This document shows, one piece after another, positions 8,537-42,096 of a DNA stretch of 64,000 bases. Where the stretch lies: IMG/VR virus record IMGVR_UViG_3300025896_000021; one strand, 5' to 3'. The stretch comes from a virus (lineage: Duplodnaviria > Heunggongvirae > Uroviricota > Caudoviricetes). The translations under genes were made by a program, and so were the position numbers. Below the pieces are notes generated by a model. The model was not told the DNA's origin, ran no database searches, and was given only the letters and a program-made list of their open reading frames with translations. Each line of letters opens with the position of its first letter. Position 1 is the first letter of the stretch.

Positions 8537-9464
8537 TGTAGCAGATTTAGATTGCATCTACCTAAGCTATGATGAACCGCAGAAGGAAGAATTCTGGGTT
8601 AAGATTAAGAACATGGTGCCTTGGGCACAACGAGTAGATGGTGTCAAGGGTAGTGATGCAGCACACAAAGCCGCTGCAGAGGCAAGCGACACTGAACGAT
8701 TTATCTTAATCGACGGGGACAACATGCCCAATGAGTCTTTCTTCAATATGCAGTTAGACTTCACTGACAAAGACAAGAACTATGAACTAGCGCAGTATCG
8801 TTGGAAAGCTATCAACAGCGTTAACGGATTACGTTATGGCAACGGTGGCATGAGTTCATGGACAAAATCTTATGTAATGAACATGAAGACCCATGAAGCT
8901 AGCGACGGCAATGACAACAACACAGTAGACTTTTGTTTAGACAGTAGCGACAACTTGTATTGGTCAATGCATGATTGCTACTCTACTACCTATCCCAACA
9001 TGACAAGTTTTCAAGCATGGCGTGCAGGGTTTCGTGAAGGTGTCAAGATGTGTCTAGTCAACGGAGCAAAGCCTTCAGTTGAACAGTTTAAAGATAGTGT
9101 TGCGAATAGGAACATGAACAACTTGACGATCTGGCACAACGTGGGCATGGATGCAGAGAATGGTGACTGGGCAATGTATGGTGCTAGACTAGGAACATAC
9201 ATGACTATGCTTACTGATTGGAATCCACAAGAAGTTCAATGGTTTGACAACTTTGCAAAACTATGGGACGAATACAAAGATAGAGATCCAAGATTCTCTA
9301 GTGAATTCTTTGGTGGAGCATTGGGTGACAAATTAGGATTGCCTATCTGTACACTAAATGCAGAACAAAGTAAATTCTTTAAACGTCACTATAACACTGA
9401 CAAACACAACATGGGTCCTCTCGTTAGAGAGATGGACGTAATTAGAAACATAGAGGGCTGGTAA
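8517..9464 (+). CDS. GT2-like nucleotide-sugar transferase
   Basis: ILIDGDN DxD motif; AWRAGFREGVKM; related to the C-terminal domain of 19380..22874. Confidence 0.55.
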   Translation: MSTNIVDVADLDCIYLSYDEPQKEEFWVKIKNMVPWAQRVDGVKGSDAAHKAAAEASDTERFILIDGDNMPNESFFNMQLDFTDKDKNYELAQYRWKAINSVNGLRYGNGGMSSWTKSYVMNMKTHEASDGNDNNTVDFCLDSSDNLYWSMHDCYSTTYPNMTSFQAWRAGFREGVKMCLVNGAKPSVEQFKDSVANRNMNNLTIWHNVGMDAENGDWAMYGARLGTYMTMLTDWNPQEVQWFDNFAKLWDEYKDRDPRFSSEFFGGALGDKLGLPICTLNAEQSKFFKRHYNTDKHNMGPLVREMDVIRNIEGW

Positions 9465-10882
9465 TGTCAGACTTAGACGGTAATTATAAAAAGCATCTTT
9501 TAGATGTTAAACAAAAAGTTGATGCAGTCAGTGATAGCTTCTGTGCAGCTAAATGGAAGCAAGTAACGATTCACTTGCAGAATGGTCATACTCATAGTTG
9601 CCATCACCCAAAGACTCACGTAGTCCCGTTGGATGAGATTGCAATTAATCCGTCAGCATTGCACAACACTAACTTTAAAAAAGAACAACGCAAGATGATG
9701 CTTGAAGGTAGTCGTCCAAGTGAATGTGACTACTGCTGGAGAGTAGAAGATAGCAACAAGGACAACGATGTATTCAGTGACAGATACACTAAGAGCGCAG
9801 ACCCTTGGGCAGCACCCTTCATTGAAGAAATTGCTAGCAAGAAATGGGATGACAACGTTGATCCTAGTTATGTAGAGGTAGCATTTAGTAGCACGTGTAA
9901 TTTCAAGTGCAGCTATTGCAGCCCTGACGTTAGCAGCAAGTGGATGGAAGAAATTGAACGCTATGGAGCATATCCTACGAGCACTAACTTCAATAACTTA
10001 GACAACATTAGTCAAGCTAAGAAGATTCCTATCAGAAACAAAGACTACAACCCGTATGTTGAATCATTCTGGAAGTGGTGGCCACAACTGTATACTAGTC
10101 TAAAGACATTTAGAATCACAGGTGGAGAGCCATTACTAGCTAAAGATACGTTTCAAGTGCTTGACTATATCATTGAGCATCCTAACCCAGAACTTGAACT
10201 GAATATCAACAGTAACTTGTGCGTACCTGACGAGTTATTAAAGAAGTTTGTAGAGAAGATGAAACGTATTCAGGGTGAAGGACTTATCAAAGAGTTTAAG
10301 CTATATACCTCTGCTGAGGCACATGGTAAAAAAGCCGAGTACATCCGTAACGGACTAGACTACAACAAATGGTTAGACAACTGCAACTATGTATTGCGTG
10401 ATATTCCACAGAGTAAGTTAACTGTGATGGCTACTTACAATGCATTGAGTGTGACAAGTTTCACTCCATTCATGCAAGATATTCTAGACTTACGCAACAC
10501 ATACAACACAGGTGCTGACAGACGCAACCCGGTATCACTTGATACACCTTACTTGCGTTGGCCTTGGCATCAAAGTATGTTCATTCTTACTCCTGACTAT
10601 CTTCCTCAGATTCAAGATCAGGTTACGTTTATGTATCGCAACAAAGAACACATGATGTGGCCACCTACATGTGGTTATGGATTCTACGAACACGAGATTA
10701 ATAGAATGGAACGACTGTACTATGTCGCCAGGGATGAAAAGATCCCTGAGTTAGAACTGATTCGTAATCGCAAAGACTTTGTATCATTTGTAGATGAACA
10801 TGACAAGCGCAGGGGTACAGACTTCTTAGGTACTTTCCCTGAGATGGAAGAATTTTATAGAATGGCTAAAGAATTAAAATGA
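9464..10882 (+). CDS. Radical SAM protein with N-terminal twitch/SPASM-like domain
   Basis: CNFKCSYC (CxxxCxxC), TGGEP, N-terminal FC...SCH...ECDYCW. Confidence 0.9.
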   Translation: MSDLDGNYKKHLLDVKQKVDAVSDSFCAAKWKQVTIHLQNGHTHSCHHPKTHVVPLDEIAINPSALHNTNFKKEQRKMMLEGSRPSECDYCWRVEDSNKDNDVFSDRYTKSADPWAAPFIEEIASKKWDDNVDPSYVEVAFSSTCNFKCSYCSPDVSSKWMEEIERYGAYPTSTNFNNLDNISQAKKIPIRNKDYNPYVESFWKWWPQLYTSLKTFRITGGEPLLAKDTFQVLDYIIEHPNPELELNINSNLCVPDELLKKFVEKMKRIQGEGLIKEFKLYTSAEAHGKKAEYIRNGLDYNKWLDNCNYVLRDIPQSKLTVMATYNALSVTSFTPFMQDILDLRNTYNTGADRRNPVSLDTPYLRWPWHQSMFILTPDYLPQIQDQVTFMYRNKEHMMWPPTCGYGFYEHEINRMERLYYVARDEKIPELELIRNRKDFVSFVDEHDKRRGTDFLGTFPEMEEFYRMAKELK

Positions 10883-12285
10883 GTAAAGAACTATTTCAGT
10901 GGCGTCAACGAGTATTAGACAGTGTTAGTCCCAGCTTCTGTGCTGCGAAGTGGCTCAACGCTACAATACATCTAGGTCACGGCTATACCCATAGCTGTCA
11001 CTTGCCTATCCCTCATCCTATTAACGTAGAGGAATTGAAGGATAACCCATCGGCTATTCATAATACTGCTCATAAGAAAGAGCAACGCACTAAAATGCTA
11101 GCAGGTGAGCGTCCAAGCGAGTGTGAATACTGCTGGAAGATCGAAGATATAGGACGTGAGAACATCAGTGATAGAGTGTATAAGAGTAAGCCCTACAAAG
11201 AAGCTGATATCATTCGCATAGCCAAAGCTGACCCACAGGATAATGTCAACTTAAAGACACTAGAGATTAGTTTCGACCGCACGTGTAACTTTGGATGTAG
11301 TTATTGCAATGCAGGGTACAGTACAACATGGGCTAAGGACATTAAAGACAATGGAATCTATCAAGGCCTCAAGAGTGATGGTGCAGGTGCTTATCAAAAT
11401 GATGGATCATGGACAGAACCCTACGGCAAGTTCAACGAAGGTAACCCCTATACTGAGGCATTCTTTAAATGGTGGCCTGAACTGAGTAAAGACTTAGAGG
11501 AACTACGAGTTACTGGTGGTGAGCCTACAATGAGCCATCATTTTTGGAAATTATGTGAGGAGATCAAGACGCAAGACTTGAAACACTTACGCTTTGCTAC
11601 GAATAGTAACCTAGGTATGAAGCGTTCATTACTAGAAGACTTGGTTATGTTCACTAAGGAAGCGAATATCAAAGAGTTCGACCTCTATACTAGTAATGAA
11701 GCGTACGGTGAGCAAGCTGAATACATCCGTGACGGTATGGACTATCAAGTATGGCGTGATAATTTGATATATTTCATGGAGAATGCTAAGTTTCGTAGTG
11801 TAACTATTATGATGACCATTACTAGCGTATGCTTATTCAGTATTACTGACTTTTTAGATGATATGATATTGCTAAAGAAACAGTATGGACATAATAGACC
11901 AATGGTTGATTTAAATATCCTGCGCTGGCCTAGTTTCATGAGCCCTATAGCATTGCCGGATCATATTAAAGAATATTGCAGAACGAATCTATTAAATTGG
12001 TTCACTGTCAATAGAGTACATTTAACTGAGGGCGAGAATGCGCAGATTCAACGACTGATTGATTATATTGAAGTAGTTGAAACTCCACACCGCCGTGCTG
12101 TAACTGATAAATCATATTTACATAATGATTTAAAGAGTTTCTACCAACAATATGATTTACGTAGGAATAAAGATATCAATGTATTTCCTGATATCTTTAC
12201 TGATTGGTTAAAAACTATTGAGATAGATAAAACAATTCCAATTAGACTGATCGGGAACGGAGCAATTACTAACTATGACAAGTAA
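10879..12285 (+). CDS. Radical SAM protein, tandem paralog
   Basis: CNFGCSYC, TGGEP, same twitch Cys pattern. Confidence 0.9.
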   Translation: MSKELFQWRQRVLDSVSPSFCAAKWLNATIHLGHGYTHSCHLPIPHPINVEELKDNPSAIHNTAHKKEQRTKMLAGERPSECEYCWKIEDIGRENISDRVYKSKPYKEADIIRIAKADPQDNVNLKTLEISFDRTCNFGCSYCNAGYSTTWAKDIKDNGIYQGLKSDGAGAYQNDGSWTEPYGKFNEGNPYTEAFFKWWPELSKDLEELRVTGGEPTMSHHFWKLCEEIKTQDLKHLRFATNSNLGMKRSLLEDLVMFTKEANIKEFDLYTSNEAYGEQAEYIRDGMDYQVWRDNLIYFMENAKFRSVTIMMTITSVCLFSITDFLDDMILLKKQYGHNRPMVDLNILRWPSFMSPIALPDHIKEYCRTNLLNWFTVNRVHLTEGENAQIQRLIDYIEVVETPHRRAVTDKSYLHNDLKSFYQQYDLRRNKDINVFPDIFTDWLKTIEIDKTIPIRLIGNGAITNYDK

Positions 12286-14375: not shown

Positions 14376-15599
14376 ATGAACATCGGATTTATTGGAATAG
14401 GAAAACTAGGCCTGGCCTGCGCAGAAGTTATGGCAAAGCAACATGTCGTAGACGGATATGATGTACAACCGGTGATCAGTGACAATGTGAATGTCGTTTT
14501 TAGTATAGAATTAGCAGTAAAAGACAAAGACATTGTATTCATTGCAGTACCTACCCCGCACAGTAAAGAGTATGATGGTTCTACACCTAGTGCCCACTTA
14601 GCTACAAAGGACTTTAACTATGACATTGTAAAAGAATGCTTAGTAGAAGCAAACAAGTATATGAACAAGAATCAATTGTTGGTTCTTATCTCTACCGTAC
14701 TACCTGGCACTACTCGCAATCAATTTGTTAATTTGATTCCTAATACTCGCTTTATCTACAATCCATACTTAATTGCAATGGGCAGTGTAGCATGGGACTT
14801 TGTAAACCCCGAGATGGTTATGATCGGTACAGAAGATGGTAGTGAAACGGGTGATGCACAACTACTAATCAACTTCTATAAGACTATGATGCAGAACGAA
14901 CCTCGCTATGTAGTAGGTACATGGGACGAGTGTGAATGTATCAAAGTGTTCTACAATACTTTCATCAGTGCTAAGATTGGATTGGTCAACATGATCCAAG
15001 ACGTTGCAGTGAAGCAAGGTAATATCAACGTAGACGTAGTAACCAAAGCATTAGCAGACAGTACAATGCGTATCATGGGACCTAAGTACATGACAGCAGG
15101 CATGGGCGATGCAGGAGCTTGTCATCCACGTGATAACATTGCACTACGTTACATGGCAGAACAATTAGACTTGGGTTATGACTTGTTCGGCTCTATCATG
15201 CAAGCACGTGAGATACAAGCTAAGAATCTTGCACAATGCTTAGTTGACGAGGCAAATAGTACCGGAATGCATATCTTCATACATGGTAAAGCATACAAGC
15301 CTAATGTCTCTTACACGGATGGAAGCTACAGTACACTAGTGGGACATTATGTAGAAGAAATGGGGCATGGGGTATTTTATGTTGATCCATTGACTGAAGA
15401 AACTGTCACTACCCATATCAAAGGAGTGGTATTGCTAGCACACTGCGCAGAATTAACGTATGATTATGCTGATGTTGAAAAAGCACAGAAGCTATATTGT
15501 GAAATTGTTTCTGGAAGCACCGTAGTCGATCCATGGCGTAGATACACAACTGACAACAACCAAATCAAAGTAATTCATTATGGTAACACTAGACCTTGA
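14376..15599 (+). CDS. ugd: UDP-glucose/GDP-mannose 6-dehydrogenase
   Basis: GIGKLG Rossmann motif, AVPTP, K-x-x-x-N, GAC(H)PRD catalytic Cys, AYKPN. Confidence 0.88.
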   Translation: MNIGFIGIGKLGLACAEVMAKQHVVDGYDVQPVISDNVNVVFSIELAVKDKDIVFIAVPTPHSKEYDGSTPSAHLATKDFNYDIVKECLVEANKYMNKNQLLVLISTVLPGTTRNQFVNLIPNTRFIYNPYLIAMGSVAWDFVNPEMVMIGTEDGSETGDAQLLINFYKTMMQNEPRYVVGTWDECECIKVFYNTFISAKIGLVNMIQDVAVKQGNINVDVVTKALADSTMRIMGPKYMTAGMGDAGACHPRDNIALRYMAEQLDLGYDLFGSIMQAREIQAKNLAQCLVDEANSTGMHIFIHGKAYKPNVSYTDGSYSTLVGHYVEEMGHGVFYVDPLTEETVTTHIKGVVLLAHCAELTYDYADVEKAQKLYCEIVSGSTVVDPWRRYTTDNNQIKVIHYGNTRP

Positions 15600-17618: not shown

Positions 17619-17703
17619 CTTCTTCAAGAATCTCATGCGTGAGTACAAGTATCGAAAACGCCTAAAAGAAATGCGTAAAAAAGATCCATTCATCTACAAA
17701 TGA
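17605..17703 (+). CDS. Small basic protein (32 aa, ...YRKRLKEMRKKDPFIYK)
   Basis: Not in ORF track; ATGA overlap with carbamoyltransferase. Confidence 0.65.
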   Translation: MFVINFFKNLMREYKYRKRLKEMRKKDPFIYK

Positions 17704-19193
17704 ATTACATAGGGATTAGCTCTGGGTTCCATGATGCTGCCATCAGTGTCGTGAATAGTTACGGGGAAATTATATTTGCAGGGCATAGTGAACGGTACAG
17801 TAACTTTAAACATGACTCGCACTTATGTTTGCCTCTAATCACTGATGCAAAATCATATATGGATAGTGATGACTATGAAGTTCATTACTATGAAAGACCT
17901 TGGCTCAAGTACTTACGTCAACTACGTGCAGGAGAACCCACTTGCATTGCAAACATATCAGTCAAAAATGTTATCGGTAGAAGTACTATTAAATATCAGT
18001 TAGGTAACAAGACTGTTCATACTCATAATCATCATTTAAGTCATGCTGCTGCTGGCTTTCAAACCAGTCCCTTTGATGACGCTACTGTTGTTATCATTGA
18101 TGCCATTGGAGAGTTTGACACTATCAGTATATGGGATGCTTCATATGATGAGGACACCGGACGTGCTGAATATAAAAAGGTATGGGGACAAACTTATCCT
18201 GACAGTATAGGACTATTCTATAGTGCAATGACTGCTAGAGTGGGACTACGCCCACTAGATGAAGAATATATTTTAATGGGTATGGCAGCATATGGCCAGT
18301 CACGTCACTCGGGTGAAATCTATGACACTCTTGTTGCATCAGCAAGAGAGTTACGATTCGATAAAAACTTGCACATAGGAGTACCCGACAACTTCTTAGA
18401 GGGTGCAAACAACATGGATATTGCTACTAGTACACAAATTGTTACAGAGCATTTGATCCAGCATGTCATTAGTAAGGCCCGTATGTTAGGCAAGAGTAAG
18501 AATCTTGTATATGGTGGCGGTGTAGCACTAAACTGTTTAGCTAATAGATTACTAGGAAATTACTATGATAACATTTGGATCATGCCAAATCCGGGCGATG
18601 CAGGCTCTAGTCTCGGTGCAGCATGTCTTGGGTACAAGTATAAAGTTAATTGGAATGATGCTTATCTTGGGCATGACATTGTTGGGAACTATCCTGTTAA
18701 TAGTTTACTTGATGTGTTACTTACTGACCGCATCGTTGGTGTCGCATCAGGTCGCGCAGAGTTCGGCCCGAGAGCATTGGGAAACAGAAGTCTCCTTGCA
18801 GACCCTAGAGGTAGTGAAATTAAGGATAAAGTAAATGAAATCAAACGTAGACAAAAATTCAGACCATTTGCGCCGGTCATTCTGGAAGAGTATGCTGATA
18901 ATTATTTCAGCATGCCTGATGGCTGGGATAATAGTAGGTATATGCAAGTCATCAGTACTTGTAGGCATCCTGACTTATTTCCTGCTATCGTGCATCATGA
19001 TGGGACTAGTCGTGTCCAAACTGTCCCAAAAGATGGAAGCGGAATTAGAGAACTCCTTGAAAAGTGGTTCGTCTTGACAGGATGCCCTATGCTGCTTAAC
19101 ACTAGCTTGAATGTTAGGGGTGAACCAATGGTTAATGATCGGGCAGATGCAGACAGATTTGAACAATTGTATGGGGTCAAGGTTTTATCGTGA
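17700..19193 (+). CDS. NodU/CmcH/TobZ-family carbamoyltransferase
   Basis: HDAA, HHLSHAA, GGVALNC, EFGPRALGNRS, RPFAP, LLNTSLN. Confidence 0.93.
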   Translation: MNYIGISSGFHDAAISVVNSYGEIIFAGHSERYSNFKHDSHLCLPLITDAKSYMDSDDYEVHYYERPWLKYLRQLRAGEPTCIANISVKNVIGRSTIKYQLGNKTVHTHNHHLSHAAAGFQTSPFDDATVVIIDAIGEFDTISIWDASYDEDTGRAEYKKVWGQTYPDSIGLFYSAMTARVGLRPLDEEYILMGMAAYGQSRHSGEIYDTLVASARELRFDKNLHIGVPDNFLEGANNMDIATSTQIVTEHLIQHVISKARMLGKSKNLVYGGGVALNCLANRLLGNYYDNIWIMPNPGDAGSSLGAACLGYKYKVNWNDAYLGHDIVGNYPVNSLLDVLLTDRIVGVASGRAEFGPRALGNRSLLADPRGSEIKDKVNEIKRRQKFRPFAPVILEEYADNYFSMPDGWDNSRYMQVISTCRHPDLFPAIVHHDGTSRVQTVPKDGSGIRELLEKWFVLTGCPMLLNTSLNVRGEPMVNDRADADRFEQLYGVKVLS

Positions 19194-19379: not shown

Positions 19380-22300
19380 ATGTTAAGAGATGTATTTTAC
19401 TTCGGCAACAAGCCACACGCACACCCGAGAGAGCAACATGCAACTGACTTAGCACACGCTAGGTCATTATCCACTACAGAGCATTTCTGGGTAATTACTG
19501 AATGCAGTGATTATCAAAATTTTGATTGGGATTGGGATTTTGAGTTCTTGCCCGACGAAGATGCATGGACAAGTGATTTCAACAATGTGTGGCCTAGTGA
19601 GTTTGACAAAGATAGTGGAACTTGGCTTTGCACTGAACTAGACGTAGATACATTTATCTATCGTACTGACGTTTCCCCAATCAAACTAAAGAATCAATCT
19701 TGGAAGTTCTTATCACCGATTGATATGTCAAGCATTGATGTATTGTGGAGACCTGACCCTAATGAGTCGCCCTACATCTACACTTGGGGTAATAAGCATG
19801 TACCGGCTGAGGTTGAACCGACGCTAGAGTATCATGTTAAAACCGCAACCGATAGAAAGTACATGGGCAATGTACAAGTTTTTCCTCAATGGGATAGATG
19901 GACTGAATCAATTAAAGTAGACAAAGCTACGTTTGATTTTACTTGGAGACCTGATCCAACTAGTCCTCCTTATATCTATGTATGGGGTAACAAATACGAT
20001 GCAGCAGAAATTAAACCAACAGTAGAATATAAAGTCCCCGGCGCTACTGAAAAGAAGTATATGGGCATCGTAGACTTAGAGCCTGAATGGGATAGATGGA
20101 ACGAGTTTATCAAAGTAGACAAAACTACGTTTGATATGAGTTGGAGACCTGATCCTAACTTACATGAGCCACCTTACGTTTACGTATGGGGCAACATATA
20201 TGACCCGGCAGAAGTCAAGCCTACTATACAGTACCTAGTTCCTGGAGCTACAGAAGTAAAGTACATGGGTACAGTAGACTTAGCACCTGAATGGGATAGA
20301 TGGACTGAACATCTACTAGTAGATAGAACAACTTTTGACTTTAGCTGGAGACCTGATCCTAACTTACATGAGCCTCCGTATATTTACGTATGGGGTAACA
20401 AGTTTCATTCAGCAGAACAGAAAACAACAATTGAGTATATCGTCCCAGGAGCAACTGAAAAGAAGTACATGGGCATTGCTGACTTAGCACCTGAATGGGA
20501 TAGATGGAATGAGTTAATAGCAGTAGACAAGAATAGTTTTGACTTTAGATGGAGACCCGATCCTAATTTACATGAGCCACCTCTTGTGTATGTGTTTGGT
20601 AACAAATGGAATGATAGTAAGACAGAACCTACCCTTGAGTATGTTGTACCGGGGGCTACTATCAAAAAGTACATGGATTATCCTGTTGCTCTACCTAAGA
20701 TTGATATGTCATTGTGGACAGTGAACAACAGTGAAGACTTACAGACATTTGATTTCAGTTGGAGACCCAATCCACATAGTCAACCTCAAATTTATCAATG
20801 GGTGAACAACGGCCCTAGATATACTCAACCAGCTGCGACTGAAGTAGTGTTGATGGAGTATGAAGATAGTAATCGTGAGGGAATTGTCAATCGTTACTCT
20901 ATTAAAACGACACTAGAAGAACTGATTAATGAACACCCAGATGAAGTCTTCTGGGTATTGAACCCCGACTTGACTTATGATAAGTTTGATTTTAGTTGGA
21001 GACCCACTAACGAGAACTTCCGCCATATCAACACGTTTGGTAATGAGTTCAGTAAGAATACACAGACATACTATATCAACGGACCTATGTACAAACTAGG
21101 TCACCGTGAAATAAACTATGTAGTAGATCAAACAGTGGCTATTGAAACTAATTTAAGCATGTTCTACATTGATCGGGGTAACGGCGGTGATAGATATGAC
21201 GCACTGAAAATACGTTATCCTCAACTACAAAAGACTCGCTATTTAAATAGCTGGGTAGAAACTATCCAACGTTGTTGCAACAAGAGTGAGTCTAAACTAT
21301 TCTGGGTAGTAAACAGTGAACTTGAATACGGTGGGTTTATGTTTGACTTCTATCCTAGCCCGTGGCAGATGGATATGGTTCATGTGTTTGGAACTCAATG
21401 GAGTCATTGGGGAAATACTTACCTAGTGAACAAGGACACGTTTGAAGAATCTACAAAGTATGTGAAGGTCATTGAACATTTGAACATATTGAACTTTGTT
21501 AAGACTAAGAGAGCACAAGCAGTTGAAGTGTTATACGATATCGTCTACATCGACCATAGTAATCTGTCTGACACAGACCTCAGTGATATCACCCATGAGG
21601 GAAGATTGATTGTTAAGTACGATACTAGCTATTTGGACACGCTGAAAACAATAGTAAAGTCATTACCAGTTAAGAAGGAACATTATGTTTGGGTTGTCAG
21701 TACCATCTGTGAATACTTTCAGTTTGACTTTACTTATATGTGTGACCCTTACGCTAAGGATCAATTGCACGTGTTCCCTAGCGATAAGCAAAAGTTCGGG
21801 GACACATTCTTAATTGACGTGAACAAATTGCGAACATTGATTGATGGTATGGTTGTGCTTGAAGACTATGTGAAAATTAATTACAACCAGCATCAACGGG
21901 CAAAACGATTGCCCGCACCTATTTTTATAAATGAAAAGGATACTCATGTCTCTATTACTGATTTTGATTTTAATTGGCCTTATGCTACGATTCTCTCGGC
22001 AGACAACAAAGAAATAAGAGTAACAAACGATGAACCCATGAGTTTGTGGACTCCTGAAACTAAGAACATAACTGTTCATAGTACCGGCGGAACATATATT
22101 ACTGTACCAAAAGAAGCTAAAAACTACGTGAAGAAAGAACTTTATGATTACCCGTATATCAAGCGTGTAGACAAGCTAGTTTATAGTAACCCACTTGACA
22201 TTGTATTCTTTAGTAACGGCGAAGCTAATGCTGATGAAAACTACGAGCACCTTTTGTTTATGACAGGTGATTTAGCGAATAGAGTTATCAGAGTAGATGG

Positions 22301-22874
22301 TATAAACGGTCGCGTGGCAAGTCAACATGCAGCAGCTAACGCGAGCAATACGCCTTGGTACTTCTTGGTCAATGCTAAACTTAAGGTTAATGCTAAGTTT
22401 GATTTTGATTGGCAACCAGACAGACTACAGATTCCCAAGCACTATATATTTACTGCAACTAACCCGGTTAACCACTTAGAGTACGGACATCAAGCTATAG
22501 TTGCTAATAATAAGAACATTACGCTTAACACTATAGCTAAAGGTTTAGACTTTACTATGGATGGGGAACATGAAGTTATCAAGCTAAACAGTGGTATAGG
22601 TATGTATAATACTAGTGCGTGGGACACATGGCGTACTAGTTTCCGTGAAACTTTGAAACTAAAGGCATATACTGAAAAGAACGATGACTTAGAAGCTAAG
22701 TTCAGATTAAGTTCATGGTTAAACTTAGGTGACGGTGATTTTGGAAATGTTAGTATGGATGCAGCACTAGATGCTTGTCGCTACTATGAATCTGTTAACG
22801 GCGAATTAGAAAAGCTACGACTTAGTTATGACTGGGCATGGCTGCGCTGCCACTACGATAAACTATATCCATAA
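19380..22874 (+). CDS. Large multi-repeat protein with C-terminal GT2-like domain
   Basis: FDFxWRPDP repeats; C-terminal VDGING...WRTSFRETLKL resembles 8517..9464. Confidence 0.7.
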   Translation: MLRDVFYFGNKPHAHPREQHATDLAHARSLSTTEHFWVITECSDYQNFDWDWDFEFLPDEDAWTSDFNNVWPSEFDKDSGTWLCTELDVDTFIYRTDVSPIKLKNQSWKFLSPIDMSSIDVLWRPDPNESPYIYTWGNKHVPAEVEPTLEYHVKTATDRKYMGNVQVFPQWDRWTESIKVDKATFDFTWRPDPTSPPYIYVWGNKYDAAEIKPTVEYKVPGATEKKYMGIVDLEPEWDRWNEFIKVDKTTFDMSWRPDPNLHEPPYVYVWGNIYDPAEVKPTIQYLVPGATEVKYMGTVDLAPEWDRWTEHLLVDRTTFDFSWRPDPNLHEPPYIYVWGNKFHSAEQKTTIEYIVPGATEKKYMGIADLAPEWDRWNELIAVDKNSFDFRWRPDPNLHEPPLVYVFGNKWNDSKTEPTLEYVVPGATIKKYMDYPVALPKIDMSLWTVNNSEDLQTFDFSWRPNPHSQPQIYQWVNNGPRYTQPAATEVVLMEYEDSNREGIVNRYSIKTTLEELINEHPDEVFWVLNPDLTYDKFDFSWRPTNENFRHINTFGNEFSKNTQTYYINGPMYKLGHREINYVVDQTVAIETNLSMFYIDRGNGGDRYDALKIRYPQLQKTRYLNSWVETIQRCCNKSESKLFWVVNSELEYGGFMFDFYPSPWQMDMVHVFGTQWSHWGNTYLVNKDTFEESTKYVKVIEHLNILNFVKTKRAQAVEVLYDIVYIDHSNLSDTDLSDITHEGRLIVKYDTSYLDTLKTIVKSLPVKKEHYVWVVSTICEYFQFDFTYMCDPYAKDQLHVFPSDKQKFGDTFLIDVNKLRTLIDGMVVLEDYVKINYNQHQRAKRLPAPIFINEKDTHVSITDFDFNWPYATILSADNKEIRVTNDEPMSLWTPETKNITVHSTGGTYITVPKEAKNYVKKELYDYPYIKRVDKLVYSNPLDIVFFSNGEANADENYEHLLFMTGDLANRVIRVDGINGRVASQHAAANASNTPWYFLVNAKLKVNAKFDFDWQPDRLQIPKHYIFTATNPVNHLEYGHQAIVANNKNITLNTIAKGLDFTMDGEHEVIKLNSGIGMYNTSAWDTWRTSFRETLKLKAYTEKNDDLEAKFRLSSWLNLGDGDFGNVSMDAALDACRYYESVNGELEKLRLSYDWAWLRCHYDKLYP
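19700..20780 (+). repeat. About five tandem 66-68 aa repeats (198-204 bp)
   Basis: TGGGATAGATGG recurs at 19890, 20088, 20292 and 20496; boundaries approximate. Confidence 0.85.
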
Positions 22875-22931: not shown

Positions 22932-24071
22932 ATGATAATAAAAATGAAAAGAATTCTCATTGTCAGCGCCGTCATGGCTATGGCAATAACCACCCAAGCT
23001 CAGACAACATACGATTCAAAAACCCTAGTTGATACTAATAGCACTAGTACCAGCACGGTTAACACCAACAACGTTAACTCGGGTACAGTGACCAACATCA
23101 ATCAAACGACAGTTGGTAGCACTAGTACTAATACTAACAACAATAATAACGTTAGTACAGGTTCAATGACTAACAACAATAACAACGTTAATAGCGGTAG
23201 TATGACGTACAACAATAACAATGTTAACACTGGCACAACTACTAGTAATAACAACAACGTTAATACCAATGTTAATAGCGGTAGTATGACGTACAACAAT
23301 AACAACGTTAACACTGGCACAACTACTAGTAATAGCAACAACGTTAATGCTAGTACCAATGTCAACACAAACAACAACGTTAACAGCGGGTCAATGACAT
23401 ACACTAACAATAATGTTAATAGTGGATCAATGACTAATAACAATGTTAATTCGTCAACGGCTACTACTTCAAATACTAACAACAATATTAACAGCGGTAC
23501 AATGACTAATAACAATAACAATGTTACGGCCACTACTGCTGCAACGACCAACGCAAATACGAATAATAACGTGAACACTGGTAACATGACAAATAACAAT
23601 GTCAACAGTGGCGACATGACCAACCGTAATATTAACGAGTCTACTATTACACAAAAAATCATTCAGCCACCGCCAACAGCAGTTGCGCCTGCAATGATGA
23701 GTGGTGGCAATGCTGACCTATGCACCACAGGCACAAGTGGAAGTGTACAAACACAAATCTTTGGTGTTTCAACTGGTGGTACAGTGCGTGATATGAATTG
23801 CGAACGACTAAAATTATCTAAGACCTTATACGACATGGGCATGAAGGTAGCAGCAGTTGCTACTATGTGTCAAGACCGTAGAGTATTTGACGCTATGCTA
23901 GCGGCTGGTACCCCTTGCCCGTACGAAGGCAAAATTGGTGAAGCAGCTAAAACACAATGGGAAGCTAACCCAGAAAAGTTACCTAAAATAGATGAGGCAA
24001 AAGATGATGACACTGCTAAGAAAATCGGCTTGGGCGCTTTGCTTGGCGCTGCTGTTTTCAAATTATTCTAA
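22932..24071 (+). CDS. Secreted Asn/Thr-rich repeat protein with Cys-containing C-terminal domain
   Basis: Signal peptide; NNNNVNSGSMT repeats; PPPTAVAP...CERLKLSK...MCQD. Confidence 0.75.
   Translation: MIIKMKRILIVSAVMAMAITTQAQTTYDSKTLVDTNSTSTSTVNTNNVNSGTVTNINQTTVGSTSTNTNNNNNVSTGSMTNNNNNVNSGSMTYNNNNVNTGTTTSNNNNVNTNVNSGSMTYNNNNVNTGTTTSNSNNVNASTNVNTNNNVNSGSMTYTNNNVNSGSMTNNNVNSSTATTSNTNNNINSGTMTNNNNNVTATTAATTNANTNNNVNTGNMTNNNVNSGDMTNRNINESTITQKIIQPPPTAVAPAMMSGGNADLCTTGTSGSVQTQIFGVSTGGTVRDMNCERLKLSKTLYDMGMKVAAVATMCQDRRVFDAMLAAGTPCPYEGKIGEAAKTQWEANPEKLPKIDEAKDDDTAKKIGLGALLGAAVFKLF
23030..23640 (+). repeat. Low-complexity Asn-rich repeats (NNNVNSGSMT)
   Basis: Near-exact duplication starting at 23187 and 23271. 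Confidence 0.85.
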
Positions 24072-25767
24072 AGCAGATGTAGTCACCGTTCCAATTGGGA
24101 ACGGTTTATCTGTCAACGTCACCACCGGAGCTAGTACACCGGCATTGCAATATCTTAATAATAATGCTTCTGCTACACAGGTTAACTTAGGTGATGATGG
24201 AACTACCACTGTTCCACTACAATTTCAATTTTCTTATTTTGGTAAGACATTCGGTACATCTTGGATGCACAGTAACGGAGTTGTTAGTTTCCAAGATCCG
24301 GGGACTACAGGAAATTTCTGTTGCTCAGGCGAAGTGTTAAACAATAATACTAGCAGTCGTTATAACTATGCAGTCATGCCGTTATGGACTGATTTGATTG
24401 GGCAAACAGGTAGAAATACATTTTACCTTAGTTCTGCTGATTCTATTACATACGGGTGGTACGGAACTAGCCAGTATGGTAATGGCAATAACAAAAGCAG
24501 TTTTGAGGTGAAACTAGATAGTGCGGGCGCAGTTGATATGCGATGGGGTGCGTCTGTGATAAGTAATGCAACAGTTACTATGGGCTTTACTGGCGATCTA
24601 AGTAAAGGTCAATTCTATCAATATTACAATGGAAATAATGTAGCTGTCGGTAACCTTGGTGTGTCTTTTAATGGAGTCAAGATAGCTGATCCGATTGTAC
24701 CGGTTGTTAAAGCACCTGCTGCTGCGGTCGTGTATACTATTGCATCAGGAACTACGATTGCAACGGTTGATTCAAGTTCAGCTCCTACTACCGCAGTTAG
24801 TGTAGGTGGAGTACAGTTATCAACAACTGGTGAAATTGCTGCGCCCGATAATATACCGCAAGCACTACGAGATGTAGTTGCATCAGTTGCTGCATCTTCT
24901 ACACCAACTGCGTCTGTCACTGCAACTACAACTGATCCAGTAAAATCAGAATCAAACAAAGCTGGACCTAGCGTTACCGTTATGAATGCTGTAAAACAAA
25001 TTCAAGCTGCCGATAAAGCCGTGCAAACTAAAGCAGTTCAAAATGCTAATCAGCAAATAGCAATAAGTTCTAGCAAAGCACAAGAGCAAGCTATGGCAAC
25101 AGTAGACACACTAAATGCAATGAGTGCGTCTAGTGTGCAGACTAGTGGTTCAGCTAACTCTCAATCTAGTTCGCAATTAGGCGGATTGATAGCACCACAA
25201 GCATCTTCACAGCAATCAAAACAACTTAATTCTCAGAGCAACACTCAGCAGTTATCAATGTTTCAATCTTATCAACCAGTGACGCAATCGTTACTGCAGG
25301 TGTACATTCCGCCCGTTGTACAAGAAACACAACCAGTTGTTAATTTAGGATTGCCTATGATATTGCCAAAGAGTCCTACCCTGTTTAATAACAATCAGTC
25401 AAGTTCTGCACAGAATGAAATTCCAGTTGTAGCGTCTGCTAGTATATCTACTAGAGGCAATGTAGTGAATGAAGTAAATGAATTCAAGCCAACAATTGAA
25501 TCATTCCAAAGTGAAATGAAAACTGATGCAGTGAACAAAAGTGTGCAGCAAAATGATCTAGCAGGTGGAGTTAGTATTGCAGCAATGGCAGTACAACCAA
25601 AAGGATATGAACTGTATTCATTTGTAATTAAGGATGCAGGATTTTATGCACCAAAAGACATATATAGCAATCAAACTACTGTAGACAATGCCCGCGCATT
25701 ACGACAGTTAGGTAGCGATAGATTACACCGAGCGATGGTGGATCAACAATTTAAGATAGGAGAATAA
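24004..25767 (+). CDS. Secreted protein with NIDO-like N-terminal domain and Ser/Gln-rich C-terminus
   Basis: Signal peptide; DD...F-x-YFG...SNGVVSF...PLWTDL. Confidence 0.6.
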   Translation: MMTLLRKSAWALCLALLFSNYSKADVVTVPIGNGLSVNVTTGASTPALQYLNNNASATQVNLGDDGTTTVPLQFQFSYFGKTFGTSWMHSNGVVSFQDPGTTGNFCCSGEVLNNNTSSRYNYAVMPLWTDLIGQTGRNTFYLSSADSITYGWYGTSQYGNGNNKSSFEVKLDSAGAVDMRWGASVISNATVTMGFTGDLSKGQFYQYYNGNNVAVGNLGVSFNGVKIADPIVPVVKAPAAAVVYTIASGTTIATVDSSSAPTTAVSVGGVQLSTTGEIAAPDNIPQALRDVVASVAASSTPTASVTATTTDPVKSESNKAGPSVTVMNAVKQIQAADKAVQTKAVQNANQQIAISSSKAQEQAMATVDTLNAMSASSVQTSGSANSQSSSQLGGLIAPQASSQQSKQLNSQSNTQQLSMFQSYQPVTQSLLQVYIPPVVQETQPVVNLGLPMILPKSPTLFNNNQSSSAQNEIPVVASASISTRGNVVNEVNEFKPTIESFQSEMKTDAVNKSVQQNDLAGGVSIAAMAVQPKGYELYSFVIKDAGFYAPKDIYSNQTTVDNARALRQLGSDRLHRAMVDQQFKIGE

Positions 25768-25910: not shown

Positions 25911-26498
25911 ATGACAGAAGAAATTAAAGACGTTAATGCTAAGATTGACGATATGGAAGCAGCAGCAAAAAAATATGCCAGTAAGGATACAGTCATTAGT
26001 ATTGGAGGATATGAATTTACTCCTGCTAAACTAATGGTTGCGTTCACACTAGTATCATCCTTGTTGGGTGGACTGTATGGTGCATTTGAAGTTTACAAAG
26101 ACTATCAAGGTATGAAGAAGAAGATATCTGAATACTCGGCACCAGACTTATCAGGATTTGATAAGCGTCTAGCAGTGATTGAAGAAACATCTGGTAAGAC
26201 TGCTGATTACACTCGTGATATTAAGAATGATCTTAAGACTGATATCCGTCGTAACGAAACAGTTACTGAACAAGTTGAACGCAGTGTTAAAACAGCCCAA
26301 CGTGAATCAGAAGGTGAGATGCGTGATATGCGTAAGGGTGTTAGAGAAGACCTAGACAAAGCTCGTGCAGAAGCAGCAGCAGTGCGTACTGAAATGGCAC
26401 AGGCACGTAGAGAGATTGGCAAGGAAGTGGAACAATTGAAGAAAGAGATTGACCAAAAGATACAGAAAGCTATTGACAATCCTTTAGCAAACAAGTAA
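25911..26498 (+). CDS. Membrane-anchored coiled-coil protein
   Basis: One TM segment followed by a heptad-rich region. Confidence 0.7.
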   Translation: MTEEIKDVNAKIDDMEAAAKKYASKDTVISIGGYEFTPAKLMVAFTLVSSLLGGLYGAFEVYKDYQGMKKKISEYSAPDLSGFDKRLAVIEETSGKTADYTRDIKNDLKTDIRRNETVTEQVERSVKTAQRESEGEMRDMRKGVREDLDKARAEAAAVRTEMAQARREIGKEVEQLKKEIDQKIQKAIDNPLANK

Positions 26499-26511
26499 AC
26501 TATACTAAATA

Positions 26512-26581
26512 AGAGTTATTGTTGTATGAAGTAGATTGAAAAGGATTCAAGACGCGGGTTCGAATCCCGCCAGGTCCACCA
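26512..26581 (+). ncRNA. ssrA: Two-piece (permuted) tmRNA, acceptor piece
   Basis: T-arm GCGGG-TTCGAAT-CCCGC (26554-26570), acceptor 3' strand CAGGTCC, discriminator A, CCA (26579-26581); 5' boundary inferred. Confidence 0.88.
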
Positions 26582-26592
26582 TAAGGAAGTTT

Positions 26593-26742
26593 ATGAAAAG
26601 CATATATCATGGCACAGCAGGTGCCAACGCAAAACTTAAAGGTAAAAAATTTAAACTTTTGTCATGTGGTTGTTGTGTATTGTTCAACCTAAAATGGGAA
26701 GAACGTATGAAAGAAGCAAAGAAAGAAATAAAATCTTTATGA
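26593..26742 (+). CDS. 49-aa basic SCGCC protein inside the tmRNA intervening segment
   Basis: AAGGA RBS just after CCA; TGA ends 1 nt before tmRNA G1. Confidence 0.7.
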   Translation: MKSIYHGTAGANAKLKGKKFKLLSCGCCVLFNLKWEERMKEAKKEIKSL

Positions 26743-26743
26743 T

Positions 26744-26962
26744 GGGCCTGCTCCGGTAATCGATTGGGTCAAGAGTAGAGAAATGGACAACTCGGCAATG
26801 TAGAAGCCGTAGGATTAGGGTAACTTTAGTCGCTATGCCCATAGCATAGAAAGACGGAGCCTGGTCGTAGACACAAAAAACCATAAATGCAAACGATTCA
26901 GTTTACGCATTGGCTGCTTAAATGACGCCTAGGGTAGTTATACCTCGTAACAGAAAATAACA
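26744..26962 (+). ncRNA. ssrA: Two-piece (permuted) tmRNA, coding piece; tag (A)NDSVYALAA
   Basis: 5' GGGCCTG pairs with CAGGTCC including G3.U70; tag frame 26889-26921; TTGGGTC pairs with GATTCAA; 3' boundary inferred. Confidence 0.9.
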
Positions 26963-26964
26963 AA

Positions 26965-26986
26965 GAAAGGCTCTTCGGAGCCTTTC
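26965..26986 (+). terminator. Stem-loop after tmRNA
   Basis: GAAAGGCTC-TTCG-GAGCCTTTC. Confidence 0.75.
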
Positions 26987-27003
26987 CCCATATAAATACA
27001 GAT

Positions 27004-27672
27004 ATGATATACTTCAAAGAAACAGATTTAAAGTTTGCAGACGACATACAAGCAGAAGTCTTGGACATCTGTCACAATCGTCCTGAAGAATTAGTCATGC
27101 GCAATCCAGAGTGGCGCCGAATACTCAATGACACTCCCTACCGTGAAATAGAATCTTACATTGGCGTTAAAGCCGCACGTGAGATTAAGTTTCGACGCAT
27201 TGCTATGCTTAAGAAATTTAATGCACTAACGCAAATTAGTTTCTTACAGTACAGTTTACCGGATCGATTGAATGAGGCATTTAAAGATGCATGTCCTTCG
27301 TTCCTACCTAAGGATGAACTGATTCCGATTGTACAAATAAGTACAGGTGGAAGCATGTTGTATCCACATAAAGGTCATTTTAGAAAAGCAAGTTTATTCT
27401 GCTTGCTTGAAGGTGGAGATGAGATTACTAAATGGTGGAAAGAAACTACCCCGTTTGATCTAATTCCTGAGTATAGAATCCCGGATATAACCAAGTGCGA
27501 AGAAGCTGTTTCTACCGTGCTTAAAAAGAATGTGTGGACTTTGTTCAATCACTATGAATGGCATTCGGTGCATTCTTATAAAGAGAACATTGAGTTTCGT
27601 GTCAACTTGGGTGTTGATTTTAAAACACTATCTGCGGATCAAGTTTACGAGAAAATACAAAATCATGTTTAA
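27004..27672 (+). CDS. Putative cupin/2OG-Fe(II) oxygenase-like protein
   Basis: PHKGH...WHSVH...RVNLG; TATAAATA directly upstream. Confidence 0.45.
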   Translation: MIYFKETDLKFADDIQAEVLDICHNRPEELVMRNPEWRRILNDTPYREIESYIGVKAAREIKFRRIAMLKKFNALTQISFLQYSLPDRLNEAFKDACPSFLPKDELIPIVQISTGGSMLYPHKGHFRKASLFCLLEGGDEITKWWKETTPFDLIPEYRIPDITKCEEAVSTVLKKNVWTLFNHYEWHSVHSYKENIEFRVNLGVDFKTLSADQVYEKIQNHV

Positions 27673-29196: not shown

Positions 29197-30072
29197 ATGA
29201 AGAAAATCTTAATCGCCGGCGCAATGCTAGCAGCTATGGGAATCGCGCAAGCGCAAGTTACTGTTTATGGTAAAGTTCGCATGTACGAAGAAAGCACTAC
29301 AGTTGGAACTGCATCGGCAGTCACATCATTGACCAATGATTCAAGTCGTTTGGGCTTCAAAGGTACAGAGGCGCTAGGCAACGGTCTATCTGCAAACTTT
29401 CTCATTGAGACTACTGTTGCAGTTGACGCACCCTCAGCAACTACATTGGGCGACCGTGCAGCAACTTTTGGGTTGAGCAATTCGCTTGGATCAATTGCAG
29501 CAGGTCGTGACAAACACGCAGTTGCCAAGACTCTTGACAACTATGATGCTATGGGCAATGTGTTTGGTTCTAGCACCGCTGTTATTCACGCCGCACAAGG
29601 TACCCGCATTCAAAATGCAGTGTTCGTTTCGGCTACTCCAGTCAACGGATTGACTGTTAATTATCAAAATGCAAATAGTGAAGTAGCAGGTACTACTAAT
29701 AGTCAAGGCGCAAGCGTTGAATATGTAACTGGTCCAGTTTCGGCTACTATTGCTCGTTTTGATAACGGTACTACAAGTGCATCTAACATCTACGGTGCTA
29801 AGTTTAAATATTCAAACACTACGTTGTTTAGTATGTACTCCGATGATACAATTGCTGGTGTAAATTCTACTGGTAAGAGTATTGGTATCAATCAAGCTAT
29901 GGGTGCGGTTACTGCACTTGCAAGCTATGGTGAAAAAGAAGGTACTAAGGCTTATAACCTAGGTGCTACTTACGCTCTAAGCAAGAACACTAAGCTACAT
30001 GCTCGTTATGTTAAAGAAGTCGCCGCAGTTGACACTCAGAAAATTGGTGTCGGTATGGAACTGAATTTCTAA
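29197..30072 (+). CDS. Gram-negative trimeric porin (betaproteobacterial type)
   Basis: Signal peptide AQA-QVTVYG; SRLGFKGTEALGNGL; YALSKNT; terminal Phe. Confidence 0.92.
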   Translation: MKKILIAGAMLAAMGIAQAQVTVYGKVRMYEESTTVGTASAVTSLTNDSSRLGFKGTEALGNGLSANFLIETTVAVDAPSATTLGDRAATFGLSNSLGSIAAGRDKHAVAKTLDNYDAMGNVFGSSTAVIHAAQGTRIQNAVFVSATPVNGLTVNYQNANSEVAGTTNSQGASVEYVTGPVSATIARFDNGTTSASNIYGAKFKYSNTTLFSMYSDDTIAGVNSTGKSIGINQAMGAVTALASYGEKEGTKAYNLGATYALSKNTKLHARYVKEVAAVDTQKIGVGMELNF

Positions 30073-30531: not shown

Positions 30532-31365
30532 ATGATGTACTCAAACAAGCTCGTGGCGAGCCTAAAAGCCAATGGTAAAATTCTCCGCGAATTTAAAGAC
30601 ACCGTCTATATCCCATTCGGGAGCGAATATAGCTTCTTGCTAAAAAATCTTCACACATCCAGAGCAGTAGTTAACATCTTTATCGATGGTGACAATATTG
30701 TTGAGGGTGGACTTGTCCTTGATCCAGGACGTGAAGTAGACTTAGAGCGTTACATTAAGAACGGCAATCTTACAGAAGGCAATCGTTTCAAGTTCATCGA
30801 ACGTACTGCTGTAATTGAAGATGGTCCGCGTGGCGTCAAGTTGGAAGATGGACTGATTCGTATTGAGTTTCAATTTGAAAAGCCATATGTTCCGCCTCAG
30901 TGGAATAACAAGAGTTCTTGGATTAGTGCATCCGGATCAACTACACTTGCCAGCTACAATGTCAACGGTGCAATGCGCGGTGTGGACTTTAGTAAGAATG
31001 GTGCAATTATGGCACAGGCTGCAAGTGCCTCAGTAGACAAGTATTGTGCCGATAACGGTATCATGAATACTAGCGAAGTACATGATGGTGCAGCTACTAT
31101 GGATTGGATGCCTGCTAACGATGTTGGCATCACTGTGCCAGGTAGCAAGAGTACGCAAAAGTTCCAGAGTGTTACAATGGGCACAATGGAGATTGAAAAG
31201 CACAGCATGGTTATCAAGTTGTTGGGCGAAACTCCTGACAACAAGCCTGTGCTAAAGCCAGTCACAGTTGAGCGCAAGCCTGAATGCGTAACTTGTGGTA
31301 AGAAGAATAAAGTACATTCTAAATTCTGCACAGAATGCGGAACTGCACTAGAAATCTTTGCATAA
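30532..31365 (+). CDS. Hypothetical protein with C-terminal zinc ribbon
   Basis: CVTCG...FCTECG. Confidence 0.75.
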   Translation: MMYSNKLVASLKANGKILREFKDTVYIPFGSEYSFLLKNLHTSRAVVNIFIDGDNIVEGGLVLDPGREVDLERYIKNGNLTEGNRFKFIERTAVIEDGPRGVKLEDGLIRIEFQFEKPYVPPQWNNKSSWISASGSTTLASYNVNGAMRGVDFSKNGAIMAQAASASVDKYCADNGIMNTSEVHDGAATMDWMPANDVGITVPGSKSTQKFQSVTMGTMEIEKHSMVIKLLGETPDNKPVLKPVTVERKPECVTCGKKNKVHSKFCTECGTALEIFA

Positions 31366-37696: not shown

Positions 37697-37993
37697 ATGA
37701 CTCCCGAGTACATCAAAAAATGGGAACACATTCTTGAGGATATTGATAAAGTTAATGTACCTGTTCAATTCATTCGTAAAATCGTAGTGAAGATGACAGG
37801 GAAGAAACAACATACTATTAATATTCAGGCTTTGATGAAGCAAGGATTGGACCCGGAAGAGGTGGAGGAAGTTATTTCACGTAAGTTAAATGAACTCGAT
37901 CCACTAATCACTAGTTTTGAATTTGTCCTCAACGTTGAGAACATTGCAGAAACAGTGCAACCCGAAACAGATAAACTATTAGGTAAACTATGA
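37697..37993 (+). CDS. Hypothetical protein
   Basis: ORF in operon. Confidence 0.7.
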   Translation: MTPEYIKKWEHILEDIDKVNVPVQFIRKIVVKMTGKKQHTINIQALMKQGLDPEEVEEVISRKLNELDPLITSFEFVLNVENIAETVQPETDKLLGKL

Positions 37994-38442
37994 AGTTAAT
38001 CGTAGCGTGTGATCCTAATGGAGGAATAGGCTATAAAAACAAATTGCCCTGGAGTAACATTCAGGGCGATTTGCCAAGATTCAAAAAACTAACTACAGAT
38101 AAAATTGTTGTTATGGGCAGAAATACTTGGGACAGCTTAGAGAAAAAACCTCTACCGAATAGAGTTAATATAGTCGTAACTACTCGTGAGTTAGAAAATG
38201 TTACTACTATTAATAGTATCTCACATCAGTTTTATGGCGAATACCCTGATGCATGGCTCATAGGCGGTGCGCAACTTATCAACAGTAGTTGGCATCTTAT
38301 TGATGAAGTACATTTAACAATAACTTTCGCCGAATACACTTGCGATACGTTCATTGATCTGTTAAAATTGTCTAAAGAATTCACTTGCAATGAACTGGAA
38401 GAGTTTCCAGATCATACATATCAAATTTGGAAAAGACGATGA
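37990..38442 (+). CDS. folA: Dihydrofolate reductase
   Basis: IG-x-x-NKLPW, VMGRNTWDS, LPNR, IGG, CDTF. Confidence 0.95.
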   Translation: MKLIVACDPNGGIGYKNKLPWSNIQGDLPRFKKLTTDKIVVMGRNTWDSLEKKPLPNRVNIVVTTRELENVTTINSISHQFYGEYPDAWLIGGAQLINSSWHLIDEVHLTITFAEYTCDTFIDLLKLSKEFTCNELEEFPDHTYQIWKRR

Positions 38443-41283: not shown

Positions 41284-42096
41284 TTAATCAGCTTTACCGC
41301 ATTTAGCACGTTTAGCTTTAGTAAGCGCACCGAAGTCTACTTTCCACTCAGCACCTGGCTGTAACTCTGTTACACCTACAGGATAAGCGTAATTCACGTT
41401 GGCAGATTTTTCAATTTGTGCAATTGATACACGAAACTTAGTTAAGTCATTGCCCAAGTTAACATAGGGCTTGGTGTGCGGGAATCCCCATCCTGCAACT
41501 TCTTTGGTAGAGTTGTTTATTACAATCTTGTAGTATCCATGGGGCACAATAACACCCTTACCAATTGTTTCATCTCCGGCACCATACAATGCTCCAACAT
41601 AGATAGTGAACGGTTGATTCAATTGAACCGCCCATCCACGAACACTAGTCTCAAGTAGTTTCCAGATGCCACGATTCAATGAGCCATGTTGTGGGTACAT
41701 ATTAGTCATTAAAAACGATTCGTATTCGACTTGCTGAGTGTATGATAGATCACCGTCCGGCGCAGCGTGTCCTTTGTCGTAACCAGTGCCAGCATAATCA
41801 TCAGGTACTGCACCACCTTGAATTGATTTATCAGCTACAAAAGCATTAGTGCGGGGAAAGCAACCCAATGCATTAGCGGGTTGCAGTGTGTATGCTACAT
41901 AAACTGGAATCTTCACTGGTGCATCATATGCAACTAGATATGCTTCACGGCAGATTGGCATTGCTGTACGCTGAGTTTGCGCAAAGCCATATGGACTGTG
42001 AACAGCACATGCTTGTACTGGATTAGGGGCACGTTGGTCCCATGCGTGTGCGGATGCTGAAATGATTAACAACAATCCTAATAGAAATTTGTGCAT
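41284..42096 (-). CDS. Secreted DNA/RNA non-specific endonuclease (NucA/EndA-like)
   Basis: Signal peptide; GYDKGH, SF-x-x-TN-x-x-PQ, LNRGIW-x-x-LE. Confidence 0.9.
   Translation of the reverse strand: MHKFLLGLLLIISASAHAWDQRAPNPVQACAVHSPYGFAQTQRTAMPICREAYLVAYDAPVKIPVYVAYTLQPANALGCFPRTNAFVADKSIQGGAVPDDYAGTGYDKGHAAPDGDLSYTQQVEYESFLMTNMYPQHGSLNRGIWKLLETSVRGWAVQLNQPFTIYVGALYGAGDETIGKGVIVPHGYYKIVINNSTKEVAGWGFPHTKPYVNLGNDLTKFRVSIAQIEKSANVNYAYPVGVTELQPGAEWKVDFGALTKAKRAKCGKAD

Follow-up and report, generated by a model that had tools for sequence, protein, structure and literature searches.

A phage two-piece tmRNA gene with a protein-coding gene nested in its intervening segment

The permuted tmRNA gene and its phage context

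The stretch of DNA analysed here (64 kb, hereafter the window) carries a tmRNA gene of circularly permuted order, in which the acceptor piece precedes the coding piece, and the segment lying between the two pieces contains an open reading frame (ORF) of its own. The window is phage DNA, with nearly all its genes on one strand and a GC content of 40%, and it encodes a large terminase (TerL), a helicase and a scaffold-like protein, as well as a methyltransferase. Its TerL shares 82% identity with the one encoded by a complete IMG/VR genome of 364 kb that has terminal repeats, and 54-58% with those of four further genomes of about 360 kb. Identity to cultured jumbo phages, e.g. Sinorhizobium phage Phosso and Pseudomonas phage PA5oct, is just 48-51%.

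When the whole 64-kb window is searched with ARAGORN, one gene only is called, a permuted tmRNA (26489-27012, + strand) with the tag ANDSVYALAA. Two Rfam models are also matched over their full length and above their gathering scores, namely RF04321 tmRNA_permuted (89.7 bits vs. a gathering score of 47, E 6e-16) and RF01850 beta_tmRNA (89.8 bits vs. 84, E 9e-26). The margin over the RF01850 cut-off is just 6 bits, because of the long spacer and of an insertion of about 60 nt, relative to the Rfam models, in the pseudoknot region of the coding piece. The initial annotation, made from the letters of the sequence, had claimed a phage-encoded, circularly permuted two-piece tmRNA, and the agreement between ARAGORN and the two covariance models confirms this observation, which is far beyond chance.

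The acceptor piece (26520-26581, +), whose 5' boundary is approximate, is delineated by Rfam, sequence and MFE fold and includes the 5' strand of helix P2. It contains the T-arm GCGGG/TTCGAAT/CCCGC (26554-26570, +; sequence and MFE fold), followed, as read from the sequence, by the 3' acceptor strand CAGGTCC (26571-26577, +), the discriminator A (26578, +) and an encoded CCA (26579-26581, +). The coding piece (26744-26990, +), defined by the full-length RF01850 alignment and by ARAGORN, opens with the 5' acceptor strand GGGCCTG (26744-26750, +) and further comprises a D-arm-like region, the 3' strand of P2, the pseudoknot region, the tag frame and 3' hairpins. The order is thus permuted, the encoded CCA end at 26581 preceding the first base of the coding piece (G1, 26744) with a spacer of 162 nt between them. 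The acceptor stem consists of 7 pairs (26571-26577 with 26744-26750), of which the third is a G.U pair (G3.U70). An unconstrained MFE fold of 26520-26800 recovers the T-arm, the acceptor stem and the closing helix that is described below.

The tag reading frame (26889-26921, +; ARAGORN) opens at the alanine resume codon GCA (26889), encodes ANDSVYALAA and closes with an ALAA-type hydrophobic degron followed by the stop codon TAA. A 3'-terminal hairpin with a UUCG loop (26966-26985, +) aligns in Rfam with the final helix of beta_tmRNA. It is not followed by a U-tract and a terminator scan returns no + strand terminator, so that the 3' boundary of the coding piece is provisional. The T-arm with CAGGTCC-A-CCA upstream of GGGCCTG, the 7-bp stem with G3.U70, the tag frame and the UUCG hairpin had all been noticed in the initial annotation and lie where it had placed them. 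Furthermore, the maturation sites that it had predicted, 26581 and 26744, match the encoded CCA end and the 5' end of the tmRNA models.

The same architecture is found in related phages, as all 19 representative relatives tested match RF04321 over its full length, with 92-136 bits. Their acceptor and T stems vary in a compensatory manner, e.g. CAGGTCC/GGGCCTG vs. CTGGTCC/GGGCCAG, and the tags that relatives encode include ANDSQFALAA, ANDEQFALAA and ANDSVFALAA.

An SmpB partner had not been visible in the initial annotation, and none is detected by Pfam among the 30 window ORFs scanned. PF01668 is likewise absent from five complete relatives of about 360 kb, the same search being positive in 10 of 10 control bacteria. 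As no phage SmpB is found, the activity of the tmRNA would rely on compatibility with the SmpB of the host. The lack of a phage SmpB in the scanned ORFs and in the complete relatives would also suit an RNA acting as a decoy or inhibitor, which would either titrate the SmpB of the host or block the trans-translation of the latter. Such a role has been suggested for a TLD-only RNA, that of mycobacteriophage DS6A, and RNA of this kind is reported as a tmRNA inhibitor (PMC4131195). It is, however, an unlikely role for the present gene, since its complete and canonical ALAA-ending tag frame, its conserved resume-codon context and its pseudoknot region would be superfluous for a decoy, and since tags of the AND..(F/Y)ALAA type are conserved in the related phages.

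Upstream of the tmRNA, a consensus scan gives a sigma-70-type promoter candidate, TTGACA-17 nt-TAAACT (26473-26501, +; 10/12), located within the 3' end of the upstream ORF. In relatives, a perfect TTGACA-17-TATAAT is often found at a fixed distance, ending 71 nt ahead of the CCA end, and 26 of 61 score at least 10/12. The sigma-70-type site of the window and its counterparts in relatives make host RNA polymerase the better guess for transcription of the gene. The initial annotation had pointed instead to a late-promoter-like CTAAATA. This motif is indeed present, at 26505-26511, but its role as a late promoter is not supported, as it occurs 8 times in the window vs. 15 expected. A T4-type late promoter was accordingly rejected, both CTAAATA and TATAAATA (2 copies vs. 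6 expected) being under-represented in the window, and the sigma-70-type site appears as the better candidate. A perfect TATAAATA is located at 26991-26998 (+), between the 3' hairpin of the tmRNA and an ATG at 27004; it is probably there by chance, as it is one of just the two window copies where 6 are expected.

Several other genes of the window are worth mentioning. A protein with a signal-peptide-like N-terminus matches Porin_4 (29197-30072, +; Pfam E 1.5e-26), and the RF01850-type tmRNA and this phage porin together suggest a Gram-negative, perhaps betaproteobacterial, host. Auxiliary genes (9464-12285, 14376-15599, 17700-19193 and 37990-38442, all +, and 41284-42096, -) encode two radical-SAM proteins, a UDP-glucose dehydrogenase, a NodU/CmcH-type carbamoyltransferase, a DHFR and a non-specific DNA/RNA endonuclease, the last being the sole sizeable minus-strand gene of the window. 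An Rv2179c-like 3'-5' exoribonuclease (62833-63390, +; Pfam E 3e-31) could bear on how the 3' ends of stable RNAs are trimmed. Two genes for secreted-looking proteins (22932-24071 and 23992-25767, both +) directly precede the tmRNA, and one of these proteins has an extreme content of Asn/Thr/Ser repeats of the NNNNVNSG type; Pfam matches neither of them, and L049, the closest of the complete relatives, lacks this block. Another gene (19380-22874, +) encodes a protein of 1164 aa with about seven tandem repeats of about 65 residues, which contain a W-R-P-D-P...Y-x-W-G-N motif; this protein has no Pfam match and is conserved in L049.

The gene nested in the intervening segment

The intervening segment (26582-26743, +; 162 nt), which is predicted from sequence and MFE fold to be removed on maturation, had been taken as a mere spacer in the initial annotation. 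This view has to be abandoned, as the segment holds a protein-coding gene with homologues, low dN/dS and free-standing copies. The sequence right behind the CCA is TAAGGAAGTTT, followed by ATG, and includes a Shine-Dalgarno (SD) motif, AAGGAAG (26583-26589, +), which starts one base past the CCA and ends 3 nt ahead of the ATG. The ORF that follows (26593-26742, +; hereafter the cargo) encodes 49 aa, starts with MKSIYHG, contains LSCGCC and ends with KEIKSL, and its TGA stop codon (26740-26742, +) is located 1 nt before G1.

Sequence searches retrieve homologues of the cargo protein at 13 viral loci and in 16 protein clusters, with 57-90% identity. Residues H6, C25, C27 and C28 are invariant among them, which suggests a metal site in the cargo protein. 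At 12 of the 13 loci, the homologue is free-standing, in an ordinary intergenic context, and possesses 3-7 extra C-terminal residues. At the remaining locus, L146, it is located inside the spacer of another, diverged tmRNA, with an identical KEIKSL-stop junction one base before G1. The window and L146 share 81% nucleotide identity over 281 nt, and their acceptor stems differ by a compensatory change. From this comparison, the C-terminus of the nested cargo is trimmed to suit the RNA junction.

The dN/dS ratio (Nei-Gojobori) between the window cargo and the nested copy of L146 is 0.07, with a dS of about 1.1, and ranges from 0.10 to 0.26 when the window cargo is compared with the free-standing copies. 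These low values (0.07-0.26) show that 26593-26742 is a real gene under purifying selection.

The function of the cargo protein was approached by domain and structure searches. Pfam returns DpdA alone, at E 0.017, and a DpdA identity was rejected as this match is below the cut-off. A Foldseek search of the PDB with an AlphaFold model of the cargo (pLDDT 73) gives nothing at E 0.001 or better, and an ESM Atlas search nothing at 0.9 or higher.

No second copy of the cargo is found within the 64-kb window, the sole one being that of the tmRNA spacer, and the identical protein is recorded on a 359-kb contig. In four relatives (L140, L141, L144 and L145), the free-standing homologue lies directly behind a zinc-ribbon gene, which shares end residues with the window ORF 30532-31365; the corresponding position in the window is empty. 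Some database gene calls for the cargo family (P0005) begin within a T-arm.

Spacers of related phages and the closing helix

The junction between acceptor end and ribosome-binding site (18-mer TCCACCA+TAAGGAAGTTT) is present in 95 IMG/VR stretches, which give 62 distinct spacers of 100-415 nt. Among the 57 SD-type spacers of at least 120 nt, 49 contain a slot-filling ORF, i.e. one running from an SD-proximal start to a stop located 1 or 13 nt before G1, vs. 0.61 expected from shuffles of the spacer interiors. The cargo ORFs belong to 30 unrelated families of 30-133 residues and are distributed over 25 tmRNA backbone signatures. A single backbone is found with 11 cargo families and, conversely, a single cargo family is found in 6 backbones. 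One of the families is a thioredoxin with a WCGPC motif (PF00085, E 4e-21). In relative L109, the spacer of 376 nt contains two cassettes in tandem, each behind its own TAAGGAAGTTT junction, and the first ORF continues six codons into the second junction. In these phages, the spacer behaves as a cassette slot, whose unrelated small genes are presumably swapped by recombination at conserved junctions.

In L050, L055, L056 and L103, whose spacers are 100-103 nt long, a hydrophobic cargo family of 33-41 aa has no stop before G1, its frame continuing for 13-34 nt beyond the start of the mature coding piece; a message cut by RNase P would here lack a stop codon. In L002, L006 and L071, all located at IMG/VR contig ends, an acceptor piece with 95% identity to that of the window precedes a different cargo ORF (starting with MIVKFANAIG). 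These three contigs break within about 100 nt past the CCA, perhaps as an assembly effect of cassette variation in the population.

In the MFE fold of the window, the ends of the spacer, together with the CA of the CCA, form a closing helix of 8 bp, CAUAAGGA / UCUUUAUG, which stacks on the acceptor stem, from which just one mismatch and the discriminator/-1 pair separate it. The ribosome-binding site is located on one strand of the closing helix, and the last codons of the cargo, with two bases of its stop codon, on the other. As the last codons form one strand of the helix, most cargos end with (K)VSL or similar. Across 61 SD-type relatives and 11 ORF-less ones, in-register pairing involves about 12-13 of the 13 positions, vs. 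8.1 in a swapped-partner control. The ORF-less relatives possess short hairpin spacers of 57-109 nt with quite different sequences, and nevertheless share this in-register helix, with about 12 of the 13 positions paired. This conservation points to the closing helix as an older, selected feature of the precursor, which the slot type appears to have turned into a pairing between ribosome-binding site and anti-site. Few helices of the clade are as short as the closing helix of the window (8 bp + 2), just two SD-type relatives having a shorter leading run, and the switch proposed below may therefore be weak or leaky in the window.

These data allow the coding nature of the spacer to be reconsidered. 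The ORF could be a chance frame in an AT-rich RNA, whose TAAGGAAG...TTTATGA ends would merely be the strands of a processing helix. It is true that the closing helix, being formed by other sequences in ORF-less relatives, is needed whatever the coding, and that UGAU or UAAU also occurs ahead of G1 in ORF-less spacers. A chance frame is nonetheless very improbable: the cargo family also exists outside any tmRNA as a free-standing gene, the dN/dS values are low with synonymous sites saturated, far more spacers are open across the slot than shuffling predicts, and one of the cargos is a bona fide thioredoxin. We thus retain a genuine gene, nested in the spacer of the tmRNA.

Finally, the distribution of the junction bears on the origin of the locus. 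A 19-mer covering the junction is absent from the tmRNA genes of 185,579 bacterial and archaeal species genomes, where it gives 3 chance matches without a T-arm. A blastn search with the whole tmRNA (522 nt) against 50,697 GenBank phage records gives no match, and a 53-nt junction query against GenBank phages, at E values up to 1, hits tRNAs and one-piece tmRNAs, just in their generic T-arm/acceptor regions, so that no cultured phage with a cargo slot is found among the GenBank phage records searched. Although integration into tmRNA genes is common and prophages contain ssrA fragments (PMC9004378), it is hardly conceivable that the locus derives from a host ssrA fragment acquired by imprecise excision, or serves as an attachment site, with no phage role of its own, as the gene is no mere 3' fragment but is full length, with both pieces, promoter and 3' hairpin, its junction is not that of any of these cellular tmRNA genes, its relatives are genomes of about 360 kb with terminal repeats, and no integrase is found among 40 window ORFs scanned.

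Proposed mechanism and comparison with known systems

We consider it quite probable that a single transcription unit gives two products, a working two-piece tmRNA and a cargo protein, the processing, tagging, translation and switch being predicted from the sequence and its comparison with relatives. The mechanism proposed here draws on what is established about tRNA and tmRNA maturation and about trans-translation. A single precursor would be made by host RNA polymerase from the sigma-70-type promoter. The cargo could be translated from the nascent or unprocessed precursor, as long as the ribosome-binding site is unpaired and the 3' strand of the closing helix is not yet transcribed. Once this strand is made and ribosomes are gone, the helix would close, hiding the ribosome-binding site and committing the RNA to tmRNA maturation.

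The closed helix would then be the substrate for RNase P and for 3' trimming. Host RNase P is expected to cut at 26743/26744, and the 3' end to be trimmed back to the encoded CCA at 26581, releasing the acceptor and coding pieces, which would pair as a two-piece tmRNA. This tmRNA could be charged with alanine through G3.U70 and, together with host SmpB, rescue stalled ribosomes and tag the unfinished chains with ANDSVYALAA for host ClpXP-type proteases. Once cut by RNase P, the cargo message would extend just one base beyond its stop codon. That rescue takes place while defence nucleases attack host RNAs, as put forward in the initial annotation, is speculation.

One further possibility, to which we give a rather low probability, is that the locus is a dedicated slot, fed by recombination and wired to tmRNA maturation, in which translation of the cargo and folding and cleavage of the precursor exclude each other, and in which the phage tmRNA destroys the cargo that is made late. 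If the two processes were mutually exclusive, each transcript would be a messenger first and a tmRNA second. Moreover, as a single base would be left behind the stop codon of the cleaved cargo message, slight 3' trimming would be enough to turn this message into a non-stop mRNA. Such wiring could result in a self-limiting early pulse of accessory proteins, possibly involved in host takeover or anti-defence.

In our view, the nested gene matters more than the tmRNA, which adds just one more example to those known. The locus suggests that a spacer discarded from a stable RNA can double as a regular messenger, whose ribosome-binding site and stop codon sit in the very helix that is read by processing enzymes, and it could thus serve as a compact, testable model of how translation and RNA maturation compete on a single transcript. 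The tmRNA spacer also turns out to be a hot spot of uncultured jumbo phages, at which no fewer than 30 small accessory genes are exchanged. From a practical point of view, gene callers and RNA finders mask each other's feature at such loci, which calls for caution in annotation.

Two-piece tmRNAs of phages are not new. Huge phages carry tmRNAs and SmpB among their translation genes (Al-Shayeb et al., 2020, PMC7162821), the OM43 phage Melnitz has a two-piece ssrA (Buchholz et al., 2022, PMC9004378), and 53 of the 133 unique tmRNAs of isolated phages are of the two-piece type, nearly all of them aquatic (PMC9004378). As such tmRNAs have already been published (PMC9004378), that of the window is by itself a further example. 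Like the window, Melnitz and the pelagimyophages combine a permuted ssrA, a large lytic phage of aquatic type and an early/host-type promoter, with no smpB reported (PMC9004378). The ssrA of Melnitz is, however, alphaproteobacterial in type and linked to a glutamine riboswitch (PMC9004378), whereas the window has a tmRNA of betaproteobacterial type (RF01850), and just the two tmRNA models, with no riboswitch as in Melnitz, are returned when 26000-27500 is scanned permissively with Rfam. Furthermore, no protein gene is described in the intervening segment of Melnitz (PMC9004378), in contrast with the nested gene of the window.

The betaproteobacterial two-piece tmRNA (RF01850; Sharkady and Williams, 2004, as cited in PMC9004378) is, in what is related there, similarly arranged as acceptor piece, spacer and coding piece, and the RF01850 match of the window covers both the terminal hairpin and the promoter-proximal region. 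The RF01850 model has a spacer of about 11 nt, vs. 162 nt in the window. The gene of the window also differs in being phage-borne, in the insertion of about 60 nt in its pseudoknot region and in having a junction not found in bacterial genomes.

Additional elements in tmRNA genes have been recorded, as the 2025 tmRNA database mentions permuted spacers with extras, one a tRNA-Ala gene and one a repetitive element, as well as group I introns in tmRNA T-loops, which can bear homing endonuclease genes (PMC11915505). Unlike these intron-borne genes, the cargo of the window needs no splicing, as ordinary tRNA-type end processing would release it. The same database, which includes just 79 phage sequences, reports no protein gene in a permuted spacer (PMC11915505). 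In the full-text literature searched, which covers a minority of the subscription journals, no account of a protein gene inside a permuted-tmRNA spacer is found, and novelty is thus provisional.

As a genetic device, the tmRNA slot is reminiscent of integron cassettes and of the hyperplastic 'moron' slots of phages, where one conserved expression site, with its promoter, ribosome-binding site and fixed junctions, receives many unrelated small genes, and the tandem array of two cassettes in the tmRNA slot of L109 is part of this resemblance. In contrast to integrons, the tmRNA slot has neither an integrase nor attC, and its cassettes are presumably exchanged by homologous recombination between phages. 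The conserved junctions of the tmRNA slot correspond to the paired strands of an RNA helix within a stable-RNA gene.
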